A stretch of 64,000 nt of DNA from Bacillota bacterium. GTDB taxonomy: Bacteria; Bacillota_I; Bacilli_A; RF39; UBA660. A model generated the notes under the pieces. That model ran no database searches. It was given only the letters and a program-made list of their open reading frames with translations, and was not told the DNA's origin. The stretch lies in the NCBI GenBank assembly GCA_015059485.1, contig SVAH01000001.1:140104-204103 (forward strand). The letters run 5' to 3'. Within the stretch, counting starts at the first letter, position 1. Each line of letters opens with the position of its first letter. Below are positions 2,727 through 45,863 of this stretch, one piece after another. The position numbers and the translations under genes were made by a program.

Positions 2727-3686
2727 ATGGTTATTGTTTTTAAAACAAGTAAAAATGTTCAAGAAAAAATGATAGAATTTTATAAAGATTTATATAGACC
2801 AAGTAAACCACCTTACTCAATTTTTCAAGCTCAAAGTGCCGATGTTGTTGTTACTTTATATGAAAGTGGCAAGGTGATGTTTCAAGGAATTTCTGCAGAT
2901 ATTGAAGCAAATATTTGGAAAGACCAAGAAAGACACTTAAACAAACGTGATATCGATAAAGAAATAGAAAAAGCCGATAAGAAGAAGGAAAAGAAAAAAG
3001 AAGAAATAAAAAATGATACTTTAAACTTGAGAAATATTTCTGCTATTGGTAGCGATGAGGTTGGAACTGGAGACTTTTATGGTCCAATAGTTGTAACAGC
3101 ATGCTTTGTTTCAAAAGAAAATGAAATTGATCTAATTGATATAGGTGTTAAAGATTCTAAACTTTTGGGTGACGAAAAAATTATTGAAATAGCGCCAAAG
3201 ATAATTAAATGTGTAGATTATAAAACATTTTCACTAAATAATAAAGATTTTAATGAGTATACAAAAAAAGGCTATAATATGAATAAAATTAAAGCAGTTT
3301 TACATAATAAAGTTTTAAGTGCTTTGAAAAAAGCACATATAAATGAATATGATAAAATTATAGTAGATCAATTTGCTCCACCTAAAAAATATTTTGAGTA
3401 TTTAGAAGAAGCAAATGATATTGTTAAAGATATTACATTTACTCCTAAGGCAGAAACTAAGTCTATTGCTGTTGCTTGTGCATCTATAATTAGTAGATAT
3501 TTATTTTTAAAAGAAATGGATAAGCTTTCAGATAGTATTGGTCTAACGCTTCCAAAAGGAGCAAATGATGTTGTAGATTCTATAGGTGTTTCAATTGTTA
3601 AAAAATATGGATTTGAAAAATTAAATGAACTATGCAAAAGCAATTTTAAAAATACGGAAAAAATAAAAGAAAAAATGGCTAAATAG
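2727..3686 (+). CDS. rnhC: ribonuclease HIII
   Basis: N-terminal DUF3378-like region plus an RNase HII/HIII core with the DEVGTGDFYGP motif, about 319 aa. Confidence 0.85.
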   Translation: MVIVFKTSKNVQEKMIEFYKDLYRPSKPPYSIFQAQSADVVVTLYESGKVMFQGISADIEANIWKDQERHLNKRDIDKEIEKADKKKEKKKEEIKNDTLNLRNISAIGSDEVGTGDFYGPIVVTACFVSKENEIDLIDIGVKDSKLLGDEKIIEIAPKIIKCVDYKTFSLNNKDFNEYTKKGYNMNKIKAVLHNKVLSALKKAHINEYDKIIVDQFAPPKKYFEYLEEANDIVKDITFTPKAETKSIAVACASIISRYLFLKEMDKLSDSIGLTLPKGANDVVDSIGVSIVKKYGFEKLNELCKSNFKNTEKIKEKMAK

Positions 3687-3693
3687 CCATTTT

Positions 3694-4632
3694 TTATAAT
3701 AGTTTTAACATAAAGATTTTTAACAGTGAATATTTATCAAAATAAACACTTTTTATTTGAAGATCACATTCATTTAACACTAACAAATTATTCTCTAATT
3801 CATTATAATTATAGTTGAAACTATTTTTTAATATTTTTTCCGTTTGCCAATCTTGTAGTTTCAATTCTTTTGAAATTGTATTTAAAGATTTATTTTCTTC
3901 GTAAAGTTGTTTTGTAAAATACATTAGTCTATATTCTCTAGCAAGCAAATTTATTAATGATATAGGTTCTACTTTCAAAATATTAAAGTCGTCTAACATT
4001 TTAAATGCTTTTTTTAAATCTCTATTTATTATATACTCTACAAATTTAAAATTATTTTCATCAATACTTTTAGATACTATTTTTTTGACATCTTCAAATT
4101 CAAATTTGCATGGTGCATTATAATATAATTTCAATTTTTCTAATTCATTATATATTAGATCATAATTATTTAAGCAATTATTTATTAAATAATTTATACT
4201 ATCAAGATCTATTGTATAGCCGTCATTTTTTACTATAGTCCTTATTTTATCTTGTAAATCTGAAAATTTTAATTTTTCAATATTGATTAGTTTGTATTTT
4301 TCTTTTATTTCCTTAGTAATTTTTTTTCGCATATCTGCTTTGCCGTTATATGTAAATATTAGAACAGTATTTTCGTTAGGATTTTCTATATATTTTAAAA
4401 GTAATTCATTATTTGTTTTGTTTTCTTTATCGTTGCCAAACATATAAGAATTTTTTGCAATAATTACTCTTTTTTCATTGAAAAGAGAAAGATAACTTGC
4501 TTCGTTTAATAACTCTTCTAAGGATATTATATTTAAATCAAATTTTTCGATATTTATCAGATTTTTAGTTATTTTTTTTATTTCTTCATCAATCAACCTA
4601 ATGCTTTCAGATACAATTAAATATATATTCAT
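3694..4632 (-). CDS. holA: DNA polymerase III delta subunit
   Basis: 312 aa, family-level resemblance to HolA (N-terminal Rossmann-like region, C-terminal helical region). Sits in the comE-holA neighbourhood common in Bacilli. Confidence 0.7.
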   Translation of the reverse strand: MNIYLIVSESIRLIDEEIKKITKNLINIEKFDLNIISLEELLNEASYLSLFNEKRVIIAKNSYMFGNDKENKTNNELLLKYIENPNENTVLIFTYNGKADMRKKITKEIKEKYKLINIEKLKFSDLQDKIRTIVKNDGYTIDLDSINYLINNCLNNYDLIYNELEKLKLYYNAPCKFEFEDVKKIVSKSIDENNFKFVEYIINRDLKKAFKMLDDFNILKVEPISLINLLAREYRLMYFTKQLYEENKSLNTISKELKLQDWQTEKILKNSFNYNYNELENNLLVLNECDLQIKSVYFDKYSLLKIFMLKLL

Positions 4633-5468
4633 GATTTTCTCCTTATTCTTTTATATTCCTCTGATTCTTGATATTGCCTTATTTTATTGTAAACTTTCGA
4701 ATAATCTATTTTGTTATAATATTGTGCCTTTTTAAAAATTCCTTTAACACCATCAAACGAATTCAAATATTGATAGTATTTAACTAAAAATTCTTTTTCA
4801 GTTTCATTGCAAATTGATACATATAATTTTGCAGTTTCGACTCCAAAGTTATCCATCAAAAAAAGTACTTCTTTTTCAGGTATTTCTATAAATGCTAAGT
4901 TTGCAATAGCATCATATCCAAGCGTTTTCATTAACTCATATACTAATTTTACTTCTTTAGGATAACCACAAGAATTTGTTCTTAAATCATATTTTTGTGC
5001 AATCATCCGAGTTAGTAATTCATTCATCCCTTCTTTTATAGCTGATGCTCCATCACTTCCACAATAATGCATAGTTTCATGTAATAGCAAATCTTCATAA
5101 TACTCTTCAACGGTGCTTCCACTTATAAAGACATGGTATATATATGATATAAAAGTGTTATCATTTATAACAATAGTTTTTTTATTGTATGTCTTATGTT
5201 TTTTGTTAATTCCATATCCAGGAATTTTACTAAAAGAATTAAGTGCATCTATTGCACTTAATGGCATCATAATATTATTCTCTGTTGCAAAAGCATTTAT
5301 ATTACCAAAATCTTCAATTTTTATGATTTGTTCATAATTATTTAAATCAATTAATTTATCTTTTTTTACAGGATCCATATAGTCTCCATATTCATTAATT
5401 ATGCACTTAATATAGTATTTAAGCTTTTTAGTTAAATTTTCATGAATTTGCTTTATATCATTTGTCAT
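4629..5468 (-). CDS. putative zinc metalloprotease (HExxH) of unknown family
   Basis: LLLHETMHYCG contains HExxH. The 3' end overlaps the holA start by 4 nt. Start moved to ATG 5468 (GAGGGA RBS 9 nt upstream). Confidence 0.45.
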   Translation of the reverse strand: MTNDIKQIHENLTKKLKYYIKCIINEYGDYMDPVKKDKLIDLNNYEQIIKIEDFGNINAFATENNIMMPLSAIDALNSFSKIPGYGINKKHKTYNKKTIVINDNTFISYIYHVFISGSTVEEYYEDLLLHETMHYCGSDGASAIKEGMNELLTRMIAQKYDLRTNSCGYPKEVKLVYELMKTLGYDAIANLAFIEIPEKEVLFLMDNFGVETAKLYVSICNETEKEFLVKYYQYLNSFDGVKGIFKKAQYYNKIDYSKVYNKIRQYQESEEYKRIRRKS

Positions 5469-5507
5469 AATAACCATTCCCTCTTAAAATATTTTACCAA
5501 ATTATAT

Positions 5508-5723
5508 TTATTTAGTCCATAATTTACTATCATCTATATTTAACTCTTTAATACATGAATAATATGGTATTTTCTTTTTATCTAATAGTTTGATTAATTC
5601 ACTTTCTAAATCGTTAAATTCACCGCAATTAAATATAACTTTATCTATTTTAAAATTATTAACTAAGTTAATAGCTTCTCCCATATGATCATAGTCTCCA
5701 TGTGGAGACATACGTTTATGCAT
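5508..5723 (-). pseudogene. fragment of a second comEC copy (metallo-beta-lactamase region only)
   Basis: The 71 aa ORF ..HGDYDHMGEAINLVNNFKIDKVIFNCGEFNDLESELIKLLDKKKIPYYSCIKELNID.. aligns with the intact ComEC sequence LTHGDYDHMGEAINLANNFKVEKVIFNCGEINDLENELIKVLDKKKIKYYSCIKELNID. Nucleotides ~5520-5710 align co-linearly with ~8866-9056. Confidence 0.8.
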
Positions 5724-5752
5724 ACGAATTAGGCAATAAAAAAAGAGTGATA

Positions 5753-6772
5753 TTACACCCTTTTGTGGCCTATGTTATCTTTTGAATTTTCTTCAAGTAT
5801 TTGTCTATTATTGTATTCTTTTAGGTATATTTCATTCATATTATTAAATTGCTTCAATTTTAATTTATTGCCTACTTGTATAACCTTTTTCCAATCTTCA
5901 AGGTTCCACTCTAATAATAAATCTTTATTTCTAATCAAATTGAATGATAATCGATTACGCATCCAATCTTCACCATATCCATTTTGAAAGCATTTTTCAG
6001 TATTATCACTATCTCTTTTAATCCATTCATTTAATTGGCCATTATCAGCAGTTACTATCAACATAGTTAATCCTGCGATTGAATAAAGACTTTCGTTATC
6101 TTCCAATATTATACCTATTTTGTTCTTTTCATCAGTAGTTAATTGTTTTGAAACTTCTTCTGATATTATTTCATATATTGGAAACGCAGCACCATGAATT
6201 CCCATAGAGTATGTTTCAAACATATTTTTACTCAATAATGTTGGATATTTGTTAGTATATGTTTCTATGACTCGTGATAGCAATCTATTTGAATTATAGT
6301 TTATTTCTCTCTCATCTGTCATTCCGTTATAACTACAAAAGTCTCCATCATACTTATGCATAAAGTTATCTGGATGTATATACCATTCTTCAGTTTCTAT
6401 TTTTCCAGTGATAAGTCCATATAGTAATCTAGCAGTCCTACCATTGCCATCACTAAACATGTGCAAATATATAAATGTATAATATGTCAATTCTGCTCTT
6501 AATTCGTTATCATTCATCTTTTTTAAAGTGCTAAGAAGATTTTTAATAATGTCTTTTCTAATATCACTTGTTGGTGCAGTTAATTCTCCTGCAATCATAT
6601 TATCAGAAACTACTTCTTCATCTTCTTTATTACGTAACATTTTATTTAAAGAAATTACTATTCTCATAACATCATTTACAGTTAGATTTTGAATATAATT
6701 TTCAAACAAGCTAGAATCTGCATATATATTATAATAATTGCTACTTTCCAAATATCTTTTAATCTTATCCAT
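5753..6772 (-). CDS. Fic/DOC family protein (putative AMPylase, class II auto-inhibited type)
   Basis: Fic motif HMFSDGNGRTAR (HxFx[D/E]GNGRxxR). N-terminal SSLFEN fits the inhibitory [S/T]xxxE[G/N] helix motif. Start set at MDKIKRY (GGATGTGA RBS); the first 13 track codons lie in a gene remnant. Confidence 0.75.
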   Translation of the reverse strand: MDKIKRYLESSNYYNIYADSSLFENYIQNLTVNDVMRIVISLNKMLRNKEDEEVVSDNMIAGELTAPTSDIRKDIIKNLLSTLKKMNDNELRAELTYYTFIYLHMFSDGNGRTARLLYGLITGKIETEEWYIHPDNFMHKYDGDFCSYNGMTDEREINYNSNRLLSRVIETYTNKYPTLLSKNMFETYSMGIHGAAFPIYEIISEEVSKQLTTDEKNKIGIILEDNESLYSIAGLTMLIVTADNGQLNEWIKRDSDNTEKCFQNGYGEDWMRNRLSFNLIRNKDLLLEWNLEDWKKVIQVGNKLKLKQFNNMNEIYLKEYNNRQILEENSKDNIGHKRV

Positions 6773-6803
6773 AATATCACATCCTAAAATCATTATATCA
6801 TAT

Positions 6804-6876
6804 AATTTCATATTCTCTACAGCATTCTTTCATCGAAAAAATTCATATGCATAAATCAATGTCTCCATGTGGTGAT
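6804..6876 (-). pseudogene. composite remnant: 3' end of a yhcG-like gene fused to a short comEC-like piece
   Basis: 6804-6835 (aatttcatattctctacagcattctttcatcg) aligns with the last ~13 codons of the yhcG-like gene at 7576 (aattcatattctctaacagcaatcctatcatctg) with a 1-nt indel. 6841-6874 carries catatg...tctccatgtgg, resembling comEC 9027-9050; this second part is a weaker match. Confidence 0.45.
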
Positions 6877-6910
6877 TGTCAAAAAGTAAGTCGAATTTGA
6901 GCAAAGAAAA

Positions 6911-6933
6911 AGAACTATCAAATAAATAGTTCT
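6911..6933 (-). terminator. rho-independent terminator after the S51 peptidase gene
   Basis: agaactat / atagttct 8-bp stem with a 7-nt loop, followed on the minus strand by ttttctttg. Confidence 0.55.
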
Positions 6934-7549
6934 AACACTTTTTAATACTATTATTTGTAATAACTAATGATTCATCGTTTGTAAGCTTATATACTTTGTA
7001 CTTATTCTGTTTTACCAACTCATTATATAATTCTTCTCTTTTTTTAGAATTATATTCTTCTGCCTCACAATGCGGAATAATTATTCCATCAAACAAGCCT
7101 AATGCATCATAGTCGATAAGTTTGCAATAATTATCATCTAACGAAAGTAAATGCTCTATATTATTTGTTACTATATGTGCACCACAAGAACCACCAATAT
7201 AGATTACTTCATTTTTTATATAATTAATTATGTGTTTATCAAAACCTGAATCTTTTATTTTCTTTAACGTTGCAAATGTATTCCCACCACTAATATACAA
7301 TAAATCAATGTTTAAATCAGTAAAATCTTCTATATTTTCTTCATCAAATATATATATATTTTCTTTATTTATAAATCCGTAATTATATAATCTATTATAG
7401 TACTTATCTGAATATATTTTTTCACTTGTTGCTTTTTCATTAGGAATAAATAGCAATTTACACTCATTTAATGGTTTTTCAATATTATCCAGTATTACCT
7501 TTTTTGAATTTTCATTGATAAAATCGCACGAACTAAGTATCATTTTCAT
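6932..7549 (-). CDS. peptidase S51 (dipeptidase E-like) family protein
   Basis: LYISGGNTF and IGGSCGAHI match the S51 GGNT / GxS(A/C)G nucleophile-elbow pattern, about 205 aa. ATG 7549 preferred over GTG 7558. Confidence 0.65.
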   Translation of the reverse strand: MKMILSSCDFINENSKKVILDNIEKPLNECKLLFIPNEKATSEKIYSDKYYNRLYNYGFINKENIYIFDEENIEDFTDLNIDLLYISGGNTFATLKKIKDSGFDKHIINYIKNEVIYIGGSCGAHIVTNNIEHLLSLDDNYCKLIDYDALGLFDGIIIPHCEAEEYNSKKREELYNELVKQNKYKVYKLTNDESLVITNNSIKKC

Positions 7550-7575
7550 TATAACCACATCCTGTAACTATTATA

Positions 7576-8466
7576 TCACACTAATTCATATTCTCTAACA
7601 GCAATCCTATCATCTGAACAGTATTCTATTACAAAACTATTTTTTCTTTTACAAATTACAATGCCAATTGTACTATTATTACTTACTTCTTTTATATTTT
7701 TATCAATATAATTCATATATTTCTGTACTTGTGAAATATACTCAACTTTAAACTCTGTTACCTTCAATTCAACTACTACATAACAATTATATTTTATATT
7801 AAATAGTAACAAATCAATATAATGATTTCTGTCACCTATTTTTATCTTATATTCACTACCTATGAAACTAAATGAATTACCAAGTTCTTTCATAAATGAT
7901 TCGATATCTTCTAAAATTAAATGATGTAATGCTTTTTCAGTAATTATTTCTGTATTATTCTTATTCTTAATCAATATAGGATTTGGTATTAAATCTTTTA
8001 CTTCAATTTCATCATTAAACATCAACTTGTTTTTTGTTTCTAATGGTAATCTTTCATATTCCCCATTTTTAATTATTTCTTCTAGTTGTCTTTTCGAAAG
8101 ATTTCTTTTTTCTATTTGTTTGGCATAATAATTTATTTCATTATTATCAGTTAAACTAAACAATTGTCTTATATGACTAATTGATAATTTGGTCCCCAGT
8201 GGGGACCATTTTTGTTTTTCAAAGAATTGATACAATTGTCTCATTCTTCTTAAAGTTCTAGGATTGTATTTCTTATCAACTTCAACTTTTAATTTATTAG
8301 AATAATTACCAATAATATCTTCACCATAAGCACTACCGGCTTCCAACAATAGTTTGCCTACTTCATAATGTGTAATTAAGGTATGCTTTTCTTTTGAATA
8401 ATCCTTCACTTTTGAATATATTTCATCATCAATTAATTTGTTTTTTATCTCATTATAATAATTCAT
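7576..8466 (-). CDS. YhcG-like PDDEXK nuclease domain protein (DUF1016 family)
   Basis: N-terminal helical region (YYNEIKNKL...VGKLLLEA) and C-terminal IDLLLFNIKYNCYVVVELK, which is a D...E-x-K restriction-endonuclease-like core. Paralog at 50546..51466. Confidence 0.65.
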   Translation of the reverse strand: MNYYNEIKNKLIDDEIYSKVKDYSKEKHTLITHYEVGKLLLEAGSAYGEDIIGNYSNKLKVEVDKKYNPRTLRRMRQLYQFFEKQKWSPLGTKLSISHIRQLFSLTDNNEINYYAKQIEKRNLSKRQLEEIIKNGEYERLPLETKNKLMFNDEIEVKDLIPNPILIKNKNNTEIITEKALHHLILEDIESFMKELGNSFSFIGSEYKIKIGDRNHYIDLLLFNIKYNCYVVVELKVTEFKVEYISQVQKYMNYIDKNIKEVSNNSTIGIVICKRKNSFVIEYCSDDRIAVREYELV

Positions 8467-8478
8467 ATTTACTCCTTT

Positions 8479-10497
8479 CTATGGACTACAAGTCTCAATC
8501 TTTAATTTATTATTTTTTATCTTAAACATAATACTACCGTCCACGTCTGTTCTGTAAATTTTTGATTCTTTCAAGTTTTCTAACGCTTCTTTATTTGGAT
8601 GACCATATCTGTTATTTTTACCAACTGATATAACACTATATTTAGGATCTATCTCATCTATAAACTCTTTGCTACTACTTGTCTTAGATCCATGATGTCC
8701 AACTTTTAATACGTCTATATCTGGTAGATTATATTTATTCATTATTTCATTTTCAGTAGTTGTAGATGCATCCCCCATAAACATAAATTTATAACCATTA
8801 AGTTCTGTATAAATGACATTACTATTATCATTTTCATTATCATATTCTTTTGTTTGTAAAAAATATAATTTATTTCTATCAATATTTAATTCTTTAATAC
8901 ACGAATAATATTTTATTTTTTTCTTATCTAGTACTTTTATTAATTCATTCTCTAAATCATTAATTTCACCACAATTAAATATTACTTTCTCTACTTTAAA
9001 ATTATTTGCTAGATTAATAGCTTCTCCCATATGATCGTAATCTCCATGTGTTAGAATTAAATAATCTATTTTCGATTTTCCAAGGCTTTTTAAATAATTT
9101 ATTAAACTAATACTAATGCTAAATTCCTTTTTTTTCACTTTCCACTTTTCTTTTTTATTGAATGAAATTTTTCCACCAGTATCAATCACAATAGATTTAT
9201 TGTTTATATCTATCAATATGCTATCACCTTGTTCTACGTTTAAATAACTTACAAAATTATTATTAAAATAAAATCTGCATTTAGATACTAAAACTAAGAA
9301 TACTATTACAAAAAAATATCTTTTTTTCTTACAAATGGAATAAAAATATAATGTAATATAATATAAAATAATAAGAATTATTGTTGGTTTTCCAATAATA
9401 ATATTTATTTTAAAAACAGTTAGAAGTTTATTTAGTGATTCAAAAATGTTTATAAGGATTACTACAATGTTATTAATAGGTAAAATTAATGAAAATAATA
9501 ATAACGGAAAAAATATAATTGAAATAAATGGCACTATAATAATATTTATAATAATTGATAAGAAATTAACTTCGTAATTATTATAAAGAGTTATTGGCAA
9601 AGATAATATAAATGCATAAATTGATAATAAAAAAATATTTTTGGGTTTTAATAATAATAAACCTGCTGTAATTATAAATGAATATTGAAAAACTGTATCA
9701 AAAATTATGTATGGGTTAATGCATGACAATATTAATGCAGTAAATAAAAGAATTACTATATTTGAAAAAGAATTAATAAATTTTATCTTCTTCAATGTAT
9801 AAAATATAGTAACTCTTAATACAGATGGTGTAAGCATAACTAAGAATGAATAAAAGAATAAGATTATTATTATTATATAATCATTAATTCTAAATTTTTT
9901 TAGAATTAAAATAATAATAGATATATGCATGCCAGAAATGGCAAATAAATGCGTTATACCATTAGTTTTATATAAATCATAAACATCACTATCTAAATAC
10001 TGCTTATCGCCGAAAATAAACATATAATAGTACTCATTTCTTCTTTTTTTAATAATAAATTTAGAAAAAAAATTTCTTATCTTATAAAAAATATTACATT
10101 TTTTGTTTAATTTATAATTTGTTGTATTCATGATAAGATTAATGTTTTTGTATTTTAAATATTTTTTATAATTAAAATTATTAGGTATTGTATTATTACT
10201 AGGCACTTCTAATTTACCTCTAAGATAAATTTTAGAACCTAACACAATATTATTATATAGATACTTTTTTTCTTTATACGTTTTAATACGATAAGTAGCT
10301 ATTATTCTTTCTTTTCCTTTAACTTGCAGTGTTAATTTATCACCATCAATTTTATAATATTCAATAGTTCCATAAAAGTCATTTGAATTTATATTTGAAT
10401 TTCGATATCTAAATAATAATTTAAATATAATTATAAGTACAAATACAAGAATAACACTACAAAGAAATATTATCTTTGATTTTTTCAAATAATGCAT
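8479..10497 (-). CDS. comEC: DNA internalization competence protein ComEC/Rec2
   Basis: N-terminal OB-like region, polytopic competence domain, C-terminal metallo-beta-lactamase domain (LTHGDYDHMGEA ... VGHHGSKTSS). The start may instead be TTG 9 nt downstream. Confidence 0.9.
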   Translation of the reverse strand: MHYLKKSKIIFLCSVILVFVLIIIFKLLFRYRNSNINSNDFYGTIEYYKIDGDKLTLQVKGKERIIATYRIKTYKEKKYLYNNIVLGSKIYLRGKLEVPSNNTIPNNFNYKKYLKYKNINLIMNTTNYKLNKKCNIFYKIRNFFSKFIIKKRRNEYYYMFIFGDKQYLDSDVYDLYKTNGITHLFAISGMHISIIILILKKFRINDYIIIIILFFYSFLVMLTPSVLRVTIFYTLKKIKFINSFSNIVILLFTALILSCINPYIIFDTVFQYSFIITAGLLLLKPKNIFLLSIYAFILSLPITLYNNYEVNFLSIIINIIIVPFISIIFFPLLLFSLILPINNIVVILINIFESLNKLLTVFKINIIIGKPTIILIILYYITLYFYSICKKKRYFFVIVFLVLVSKCRFYFNNNFVSYLNVEQGDSILIDINNKSIVIDTGGKISFNKKEKWKVKKKEFSISISLINYLKSLGKSKIDYLILTHGDYDHMGEAINLANNFKVEKVIFNCGEINDLENELIKVLDKKKIKYYSCIKELNIDRNKLYFLQTKEYDNENDNSNVIYTELNGYKFMFMGDASTTTENEIMNKYNLPDIDVLKVGHHGSKTSSSKEFIDEIDPKYSVISVGKNNRYGHPNKEALENLKESKIYRTDVDGSIMFKIKNNKLKIETCSP

Positions 10498-25946: not shown

Positions 25947-26225
25947 ATTAACTCCCTCCAATCAATAAAACTTATTATATTTTATTAATATAAATTTGTC
26001 TATAAAAAAACTAATTTTTATTCAAAAATATTTATAAAGTCCCTATTTATCGCTTTTTTACTAATGTCTACTAGTGCGTAAATAGACAGACTTTTACATA
26101 CTAAATTAACTATTTTTTTATTTTTAAATATATTATACACTAAAAGAAATAAGCAAATAATATTAGCTTATTTCTTTTATTTGAGTAAAATTAAATAAAT
26201 ATTAATAAAATTATTTTTTCAGTTA

Positions 26226-26762
26226 TTAGTTTGTTAAAGTTAATGTAGCACTATCGATTGGTAAATTTGAATAATTTGCATCAGTCAATGTTATAGTTCT
26301 TAGTGCTCCTAATGCATTTTGAACCTCTATAGTACTAGTTTGTTCAGTTAATGTTGTATTTTTTACAGTTGCATCAAATTCGTGGTTACCATCTGAAGCA
26401 GTTTGTTTATAATAAATTACTGGTGCACCAGTTTGAGCATATGGAATATTATTGAAAAAAGCATTACCTGATGAATCAGTCGTTATCAAAGAACCATATT
26501 CAGTACCAGTACTGTCTGTCCTTATAAATGTTGCACCTATTACTGGCGTACCTGTCGAGGTTCCATCTTCTGTTACATGTATAGTTAATGTACCAGTTGC
26601 TGATATTGTAAATGCATATGAATCCGTACCGCTTTCAATAGATACACTAGATGGATCAATAGATATATTATCATACCCTGTAGATTCTGCAGTTACAGTA
26701 TAAGTTCCATTTAGTAAATTAGCTGTACCACTACCATTGGTAATAGTTACTGTCTTTGCCAT
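26226..26762 (-). CDS. Thr/Ser/Gly-rich beta-sandwich (Cna-B / carboxypeptidase-regulatory-like) repeat protein, no signal peptide
   Basis: Contains one complete repeat (TLTIHVTEDGTSTGTPVIGATFIRTD...TTDSSGNAFFNNIP...YYKQTASDG...). It is flanked by an N-terminal partial repeat and a C-terminal partial repeat (RTITLTDANYSNLPIDSATLTLTN). Noticeably higher GC than its neighbours. Confidence 0.6.
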   Translation of the reverse strand: MAKTVTITNGSGTANLLNGTYTVTAESTGYDNISIDPSSVSIESGTDSYAFTISATGTLTIHVTEDGTSTGTPVIGATFIRTDSTGTEYGSLITTDSSGNAFFNNIPYAQTGAPVIYYKQTASDGNHEFDATVKNTTLTEQTSTIEVQNALGALRTITLTDANYSNLPIDSATLTLTN

Positions 26763-27100
26763 AAAGTAATCATCCCCTTCATTATAGGCAAATTTTTGTA
26801 GTTTCTATCTGTAAGTAAAAAGGTAATAATTCTGCTTTGGTTTTGATATAAAATACATTTATTAAAATTAAAAATATATTTATCACAATTATTTATGATA
26901 TAAAAATGCTTTTTGATAAAACCTGCATTAGATTTTGCAATTAATTTATATAGAGAGTTCTTTTTTAAACATAATAACATTCTACCGTTATAGGTTTCTT
27001 TTTTACATATAATATTATTGTCTAAATCATATATAATGACACATGCTTGCATAACATCTTTATAACCCAATCCATTGAATATCAATTCTATCTCTTTCAT
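26747..27100 (-). CDS. beta-sandwich repeat protein ending in the same half-domain motif; overlaps the downstream gene by 16 nt
   Basis: The VIIYDLDNN...TYNGRMLL...YKLIAKSNAGF pattern is followed by the C-terminal RIITFLLTDRNYKNLPIMKGMITL. ATG 27100 follows an AGGTGA RBS. Confidence 0.5.
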   Translation of the reverse strand: MKEIELIFNGLGYKDVMQACVIIYDLDNNIICKKETYNGRMLLCLKKNSLYKLIAKSNAGFIKKHFYIINNCDKYIFNFNKCILYQNQSRIITFLLTDRNYKNLPIMKGMITLWQRQ

Positions 27101-27138
27101 CTTTATCACCTTTCAATATATTTTATACACATTAAAAA

Positions 27139-27160
27139 AGATGAATAATAATATTCATCT
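27139..27160 (-). terminator. rho-independent terminator after ORF 27201..27383
   Basis: agatgaata / tattcatct 9-bp stem with a 4-nt loop, followed on the minus strand by tttttaatg. Confidence 0.55.
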
Positions 27161-27200
27161 AAAATTTTATTGATTCTTTATAAATTCATAATTACACAAA

Positions 27201-45575: not shown

Positions 45576-45656
45576 AGTTTAGGCTTATTCTCTCACTTTA
45601 AAAAGAAAATGTCATACTATAAAATAGATGGATTATAAGAAAGTGAGGGATATATT

Positions 45657-45863
45657 TTGAATAATAAAATATTGACTGCTCGTGAAAAAGAAGTTTTCAA
45701 TCTTTTAATATTAAATAAATCTACAAAAGAAATAGCAATCTCCTTAGGTATTAGTGAAAAAACAGTTAGAAATCACATATCTAATGCTATTCAAAAACTC
45801 GAGGTTAAAGGACGCGCTCAAGCAGTAGTAGAACTTTTAAAATTAGGAGAAATAAAATTATAA
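45657..45863 (+). CDS. gerE: LuxR/GerE family DNA-binding protein
   Basis: 68 aa, LTAREKEVFNLL...STKEIAISLGISEKTVRNHISNAIQKLEV. TTG start. Confidence 0.8.
   Translation: MNNKILTAREKEVFNLLILNKSTKEIAISLGISEKTVRNHISNAIQKLEVKGRAQAVVELLKLGEIKL

Follow-up and report, generated by a model that had tools for sequence, protein, structure and literature searches.

A split CnaB/prealbumin-type protein pair of uncultured gut and rumen Bacilli, a candidate leaderless spore-surface fibre

Ena fibres (S- and L-ENA, Ena1-3, DUF3992) and F-ENA fibres (DUF4183) lie on the spore surface and are built from beta-sandwich subunits made without a leader in the mother cell (PMC11844507; PMC12357932). The subunits self-assemble even in the cytoplasm of Escherichia coli, and there are separate anchor proteins (PMC11844507). 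Here we analyze a pair of overlapping genes, termed P and M, in a stretch of 64,000 nucleotides from a bacterium of the lineage RF39 (assembly GCA_015059485.1, contig SVAH01000001.1, positions 140,104 to 204,103; hereafter the window). Ena and F-ENA are the closest functional analogues of what we propose for P-M. Small leaderless beta-sandwich subunits, short terminal connectors that dock on a neighbor, a separate anchor or cap and cross-linking by cysteine are common to both, for P-M in the form proposed below. The connector of Ena and F-ENA is a seven-residue N-terminal hook or a disulfide-linked N-terminal connector, whereas that of P-M would be a two-strand hairpin that completes a half-domain. 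The fold of P-M is also different, being of the CnaB/prealbumin type, and fibre formation is proposed here from genes and models. Neither M nor P has a Pfam match to DUF3992 or DUF4183 at E ≤ 1, and membership of the Ena or F-ENA families was therefore rejected.

Fibres formed by donor-strand complementation provide a second comparison. In chaperone-usher pili, the type V pili of Bacteroidota, TasA, archaeal threads and bundling pili an incomplete immunoglobulin-like sandwich is completed by the adjacent subunit, generating a polar polymer with specialized ends. The Elr/WxL pilus of Enterococcus faecalis is reportedly listed among the donor-strand complementation or exchange fibres as well. 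These subunits have Sec signal peptides and donate a single strand, usually from the N-terminus, whereas in our model of P-M two C-terminal strands (A-B) are donated to an N-terminal acceptor. P-M differs further in having no signal peptide, chaperone or usher, and in a proposed cap that is encoded by the overlapping upstream gene. No match to TasA/Peptidase_M73 or to fimbrial families was found in Pfam or NCBIfam at E ≤ 1.

The fold itself is best known from proteins that are handled by sortases. Sortase-assembled pilins and LPXTG adhesins (BcpA 3kpt, SpaA 5f44, CnaB2 8bdw) have the same seven-strand fold as the central domain of M, but P-M is without the signal peptide, LPXTG, pilin motif, Lys-Asn/Asp-Glu triad and linked sortase of the pilins. 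SpyTag and SpyCatcher are an engineered split of a CnaB2 domain. The concept is similar, in that a CnaB-type sandwich is divided into a short donor and a larger acceptor that are rejoined between molecules. The split in P-M is natural and conserved and falls after strand B, whereas that of SpyTag/SpyCatcher falls before the last strand, and P-M lacks the isopeptide residues.

The reading that we favor, to which we assign a probability of about one half, is that P-M encodes a leaderless fibre of the spore surface, put together in the mother cell through the donation of hairpins and capped or anchored by P. The C-terminal hairpin of one M subunit (strands A-B) would enter the N-terminal half-domain (strands C-G) of the next, leading to a head-to-tail chain of M. 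P would give a hairpin, has no free half-domain and would thus cap one end; being rich in cysteine, it would probably also anchor the fibre. A form of M that lacks the hairpin, present in some genomes, would cap the other end. The mother cell would assemble the fibre on the coat or surface of the spore, as it does with Ena and F-ENA, a location suggested by the lack of an export signal together with sporulation genes and a promoter of mother-cell type. We infer the insertion of the hairpin between subunits, the formation of a polymer, the role of P as cap or anchor and the location on the spore from the results set out below. More tentatively, P-M would represent a kind of endospore appendage that has so far gone unrecognized, made by uncultured Bacilli of gut and rumen that have reduced genomes. 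Its shaft would consist of split CnaB/prealbumin domains, and its polarity would be set by the P cap and, where a genome encodes one, by a terminator that acts as acceptor only.

M is widely conserved. A search with the protein returned 1,368 homologs, nearly all of them at 177-179 amino acids and 70-82% identity, and the best 120 are all within these ranges. A profile run against 1.84 billion representatives of clusters at 50% identity gave 181 clusters, in which most full-length members have 175-190 amino acids. M was found in 54 species-level genomes, all of them metagenome-assembled genomes of uncultured rumen or gut Bacilli, and is single copy in the genome of the window; genomes of this order are 0.7-1.6 Mb in size. 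At about 49 of 55 loci M is preceded by a gene for a protein of ~100-130 amino acids that overlaps it by 8-26 nt, the 16 nt between the end of the P stop codon and the M start in the window falling within this range, and these upstream proteins end in ...hTFxLTDxxYxxLPIxKGExxLW. P evolves far faster than M, and a word-based search returned only six relatives of it. The family is absent from Pfam and is annotated as hypothetical only, and a sequence search of the PDB gave no relative.

The first-pass annotation of this DNA had proposed a complete Cna-B-like repeat in the 178-residue protein, and structure prediction bears this out. AlphaFold2 with a 34-row alignment of M gives seven strands in residues 57-148, with a predicted local distance difference test score (pLDDT) of ~90. 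Foldseek matches this central domain to CnaB2 (8bdw) with E = 7.7e-6 and a template modelling score (TM) of 0.81 on the target, and the Gram-positive pilins BcpA, SpaD and GBS52 are also matched. M scores 22.0 bits against the Pfam family SpaA (PF17802, in the group of CnaB PF05738), for which the cut-off is 23.1 bits, and its relative P0129 lies above this at 27.3 bits. Isopeptide formation had also been raised as a possibility. From residue conservation, no triad for a Lys-Asn/Asp isopeptide with a catalytic Glu/Asp is found in the CnaB domain of M. Strand A (TLTIHVTE) has an invariant His62 in place of the lysine, and K119-Q120 stands at the usual position of the catalytic Glu of 'ETKAP'; canonical LTK...VETKAP repeats are seen in P0196. 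The only conserved lysines of M are K3 and K119. A covalent lock might form at the broken B-C loop, where the conserved Lys3 would meet the C-terminal Asn of the donor.

The two ends of M are of a different character. In the same run residues 1-55 have pLDDT values of 45-78, and the C-terminus (150-178) is unplaced at ~50. Residues 3-45 match positions 31-72 of the 82 in Pfam CarboxypepD_reg (PF13620) with 19.5 bits and E = 1.3e-3, in agreement with the proposal that the N-terminus is the distal part of a domain. When the C-terminal 28 residues of M were prepended in silico to the N-terminal part, the match extended to positions 5-72 of 82, with 28.2 bits and E = 2.5e-6. Both scores are under the cut-off of 32.3 bits, which the natural fusion P0227 reaches (32.3 bits). 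The gain of 8.7 bits indicates that one prealbumin-type sandwich is made up of strands A-B from the tail and strands C-G from the N-terminal part. The assignment of the C-terminus to the first two strands of a domain stands. Comparison of the in silico permuted domain (hairpin plus N-terminal part) with the central domain using hhalign gave no signal (probability <1%). What supports an internal repeat is consequently the Pfam model together with the fold, and we do not claim internal repeats at the level of sequence. Within the hairpin R155, T156, L159, N163, Y164, L167 and T175 are invariant.

The lack of signals for export or anchoring, previously noted for the proteins of the window, extends to the family. 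There is no hydrophobic leader in 53 M and 36 P sequences (maximum Kyte-Doolittle(15) ≤ 1.8), and an LPxT[GASN] motif occurs in one of the 53 M and none of the 36 P sequences; M ends in ...TLTLTN. Sortase-domain matches are present elsewhere in the genome of the window, and no sortase is linked to P-M across the 55 loci.

P ends in the same hairpin as M, as had been read from the window. The two C-termini are identical at 12 of 21 residues by BLASTP (TFLLTDRNYKNLPIMKGMITL compared with TITLTDANYSNLPIDSATLTL, E = 1e-5), and the hairpin is the conserved part of the otherwise fast-evolving P. The conserved K/R-G-E of the P orthologs is encoded by AAAGGAGA, the Shine-Dalgarno site of M. The hairpins of P are closer to the M hairpin of their own genome than to those of other genomes (permutation p = 5e-5, 47 pairs), and this is also the case if only the 42 split pairs are included (p = 0.015). 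Hairpins that share one acceptor would be expected to co-vary in this way. The body of P, judged from its sequence, looks like one complete sandwich that is followed by the hairpin, and MAFFT repeatedly set it against a full unit of hairpin plus strands C-G. When stand-alone P proteins were included, the MAFFT alignments placed P wrongly on the hairpin or the central domain of M, and such P sequences were left out for folding.

Orthologs of the pair are mostly split with an overlap, and in-frame fusions of P and M occur in five divergent lineages (P0132, P0133, P0224, P0227 and P0239), two of them on contigs with 51% GC. In every fusion the P hairpin runs directly into the first residues of M, so that the split domain is contiguous and unpermuted. 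In all five the first codon of M is still ATG or TTG and has a GGAGG-type site 8-10 nt in front of it, from which we would expect that free M could still arise by internal initiation. Two further forms extend the set. The complete gene for P0129 encodes a tandem M-M', in which the hairpin of M passes straight into a second half-domain and the chain ends after a second CnaB domain, with no terminal hairpin. Another genome has P-M plus a separate M of 151 amino acids without the hairpin. P as donor only, M as acceptor plus donor and the hairpin-less M as acceptor only together comprise the set of forms that a polar polymer needs.

The context of these genes is one of sporulation. The genome of the window encodes Spo0A (138 bits) and SpoIVA, together with pro-sigK (297.9 bits) and pro-sigE (254 bits), both with pro-sequences. 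Of the 301 genomes of the order 265 have SpoIVA, and none of the 46 with M lacks it (one-sided Fisher p = 0.0017, kinship ignored). Both sporulating and non-sporulating species have been predicted within RF39, RFN20 and ML615J-28 (PMC10868615). Upstream of P, an exact CATAnnnTA is present 25-48 nt before the start in 16 of 32 regions, compared with 4 of 129 control open reading frames (ORFs) from the same loci (p = 4e-10). The remaining loci, including the window (TATAAAATA), have [A/T]ATAnnnTA in the same register. An element of the CATA type matches the -10 consensus of sigE and sigK in Bacillus subtilis.

In the genome of the window CATAnnnTA precedes the start codon by 20-45 nt, together with a ribosome-binding site, in only 28 genes. 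Ten of these were checked with NCBIfam and include yabG (equivalog) and ylmC/ymxH, both above cut-off, a LysM amidase of CwlD/SafA type, a spoVIF-like gene and a GerE-like regulator of 68 amino acids. The 28 genes look like a compact mother-cell regulon, and CATA-type elements are likewise present 5' of spoIVA and sigK. Expression of P-M in the mother cell, as judged from these elements, is a reasonable assignment at the level of the family.

Two groups of observations weigh against a spore-surface fibre made by exchange of hairpins. The first concerns the chain in which the hairpin docks. M could be closed on itself, its own hairpin completing its own half-domain, i.e. a circular permutation with an inserted CnaB domain. 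P would then be a separate small partner or a 1:1 binder, and the pair would still be a leaderless component of the spore coat or the cytoplasm. We ran AlphaFold2 a second time on the natural fusion P0133 as a single chain, with a 58-row alignment. The half-domain then has pLDDT values of 92-96 and the strands of the C-terminal hairpin ~94, from which we take the two to be docked in one chain, and a contact between hairpin and half-domain is strongly predicted. P and the internal hairpin are unplaced at <50, the P part of this model being uninformative because P was excluded from the folding alignment. Taken as it stands the run favors self-closure, but the contact that it predicts would fit a swap between subunits equally well. 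The linker between the central domain and the hairpin is of constant length with a conserved Gly-Ala, which also speaks for self-closure. Some copies of M have no P gene (L069, for example), P0129 has neither P nor a free hairpin, and for two stand-alone fusions (L060 and L064) there is no second M gene within their short contigs.

Self-closure is the main rival and a serious one, though we consider it less likely than the swap. In the P0133 model part of the CnaB domain (residues 171-200) has lost confidence, with pLDDT 39-63, and in the run where the CnaB domain is well folded the hairpin is unplaced; in neither run are the split domain and the CnaB domain both well formed. A self-closed M would leave no role for the hairpin of P, the sole well-conserved part of that protein, which co-varies with that of M. 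Self-closure does not readily account for the hairpin-less M or for the M-M' tandem, in which the first half-domain is without a partner in its own chain. For these reasons we favor the swap between subunits. It is common for known donor-strand polymers to self-complement when they are predicted as monomers.

The second group concerns the location. P-M might be a vegetative surface or secreted structure that leaves the cell by an unrecognized route, or an intracellular scaffold unrelated to spores, and we regard this as unlikely. The -10 element of the window has T in place of the first C of CATA and could serve a housekeeping sigma factor, and the assignment of mother-cell expression is for that reason weaker for this copy than for the family. 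The association of M with SpoIVA is weak, since the background is already 88%. The module is accessory and varies in position, with M in 46 of the 301 genomes. The neighbors of P-M in one genome are a SipW-like signal peptidase and proteins whose signal peptides are TasA-like, and at another locus a P-M fusion is located 3' of an EssC-like ATPase and an HtrA protease. Clustering of all the ORFs in the 55 loci revealed no other kept neighbor (5 of 55 at most), the flanks being unrelated housekeeping genes, and no accessory gene for secretion, sortase or chaperone is conserved across them. Thus no dedicated export machinery travels with the pair, and this argues against such a role, as do the lack of a leader in both proteins, the mother-cell-type -10 in exact register in half of the orthologs, the presence of SpoIVA in every genome with M and a composition of M that is typical of an extracellular fibre. 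Head-to-tail completion with the upstream protein as initiator and a possible link to spores had been offered as one option in the first-pass annotation; the fusions, co-variation, hairpin-less M, sporulation genes and promoters are all in accord with it, and polymerization is what we would deduce from them.

The other option was a single multi-domain adhesin gene, frameshifted and truncated, and this is refuted: the domain boundaries are indeed out of register with the ORFs and the central domain of M does resemble in sequence the repeats of long LPXTG CnaB adhesins, but the same split, overlap and lengths (177-179 residues for M) are kept across more than 50 species, there are no internal stops, M is under strong purifying selection and is preceded by a Shine-Dalgarno site of its own, no relative has a signal peptide or sorting signal, and in the rare fusions the signals for starting M internally (Shine-Dalgarno site and start codon) are retained. 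P-M is an intact conserved module and not a broken adhesin. An origin of phage, plasmid or defense-system type was also rejected, with no match of M and a single non-significant one of P (E = 0.11) in PHROGs, none in PADLOC and none by tblastn against 50,697 phage records.

If P-M does form fibres in the manner proposed, it would be a third and structurally distinct way of building them on the spore surface, beside Ena and F-ENA, and would extend donor-strand complementation to a two-strand, C-terminal and leaderless form. It would also be a natural counterpart of split-CnaB protein ligation that requires neither sortase nor chaperone, and a CnaB-type split domain that assembles itself with no enzyme would be of interest for the engineering of split-domain tags. 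The pair would in addition provide a testable marker that never-cultured small-genome Bacilli of the gut and rumen make decorated spores, which bears on transmission from host to host. Even without fibres, a conserved gene boundary that cuts a domain after strand B, with occasional refusion, is a clean example of the splitting of a domain across overlapping genes.

Table 1. Features of the P-M locus (positions in the window) and genes with a CATAnnnTA element in the genome of the window (G000)
Feature	Position	Strand	Basis
Gene P	26747..27100	-	ORF; 117 amino acids from ATG, 5 Cys, leaderless
P C-terminal hairpin, residues 90-113, RIITFLLTDRNYKNLPIMKGMITL	26762..26833	-	12/21 identity to M C-terminus, ortholog motif, co-variation
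M Shine-Dalgarno AAGGGGA, within P hairpin codons K-G-M	26773..26779	-	read from sequence
Gene M	26226..26762	-	178 amino acids, Thr-rich, Cys-free, Lys-poor, leaderless
M residues 1-55, strands C-G, prealbumin/CarboxypepD_reg-like, without A-B	26598..26762	-	Pfam PF13620, AlphaFold2
M residues 56-150, seven-strand CnaB-type domain	26313..26597	-	AlphaFold2, Foldseek
M residues 155-178, C-terminal A-B hairpin RTITLTDANYSNLPIDSATLTLTN	26229..26300	-	invariant residues, AlphaFold2, natural tandem P0129
-10-like element TATAAAATA	27119..27127	-	register alignment with CATAnnnTA of orthologous loci
Stem-loop then U6 upstream of P promoter, terminator of preceding gene	27139..27160	-	RNA fold
14-bp AU-rich stem-loop 3' of M, terminator-like	26141..26179	-	RNA fold, z = -2.95
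CATAnnnTA genes, G000	C12:143904-144680, C9:2249-2470, C16:47349-48548, C32:14551-14793, C25:28669-29019, C26:63871-64131

The features of the locus are collected in Table 1. A GTG at 27109, three codons 5' of the ATG of P, lies inside the Shine-Dalgarno site of P, AAAGGTGAT. The pair had been read as a unit with its own terminators, and RNA folding places a terminator-like stem at each end. A consensus terminator scan called neither, because they are AT-rich. The flanks are ordinary chromosomal genes, with lon downstream and small ORFs and tRNA-Thr upstream.

The M gene is richer in GC than its surroundings, as had been noticed in the window, with 35% compared with 19-29% (mostly 21-27%) in flanking windows. 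M contains 18% Thr, 8.5% Ala and 8.7% Gly and is also rich in Ser, while Cys is at 0.1% and there is no Trp; Lys is at 1.6%, compared with 10% in other ORFs of the window. The amino acid composition accounts for the high GC, and horizontal transfer as its cause was set aside. The composition of P is close to the proteome average with the exception of Cys, which at 3.5% is about three times the background of 1.2%.

One of the fusion genes, that for P0132 (L061, 209-1093), translates only if one TGA near the N-terminus is read as Trp. The organism may use code 4; otherwise translation would begin 3' of this TGA.

The genome with the separate hairpin-less M has a distinctive arrangement (L067, G222:C54:12000-24000, 3007-9370, minus strand). 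Here P-M is beside the SipW-like signal peptidase, which has a multi-pass membrane N-terminus, and nearby there are two proteins with signal peptides of TasA/SipW type, one of them Gly-rich with 627 amino acids, together with the 151-residue M paralog. This arrangement is seen in this genome only. Elsewhere (L062/L063, 1-4927) a P-M fusion lies 3' of an EssC-like FHA/FtsK-SpoIIIE ATPase of ~1500 amino acids, three small ORFs, Abi_2 and an HtrA-type protease. These surroundings may be a type VII secretion neighborhood, or a coincidence.

In the genome of the window sigK (G000:C26:43718-44374) appears as one uninterrupted ORF of 234 amino acids with a pro-sequence, and there is no skin-like intervening element. 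Many of the 28 genes with CATAnnnTA share the context CATAAAATATTATAGGTGAT, and several of the others encode small proteins of unknown function. The 68-residue protein of LuxR type is encoded in the window itself (45657-45863, plus strand), where CATACTATA lies 44 nt before a TTG start, with the promoter at ~45612-45620. We take it to be very similar to the C-terminal part of GerE of B. subtilis, and it probably acts as this organism's late regulator of the mother cell. A second conserved box, TAGGT(N3-6)TATTATGAT, is observed ~25-35 nt 5' of the -10-like element of P in many loci (for example L041, L047, L021, L050 and L019), and is presumably akin to a TRGGY site of the GerE type or to a -35 region. 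In the window this box, at ~27139-27165, overlaps the terminator-like hairpin of the upstream gene.

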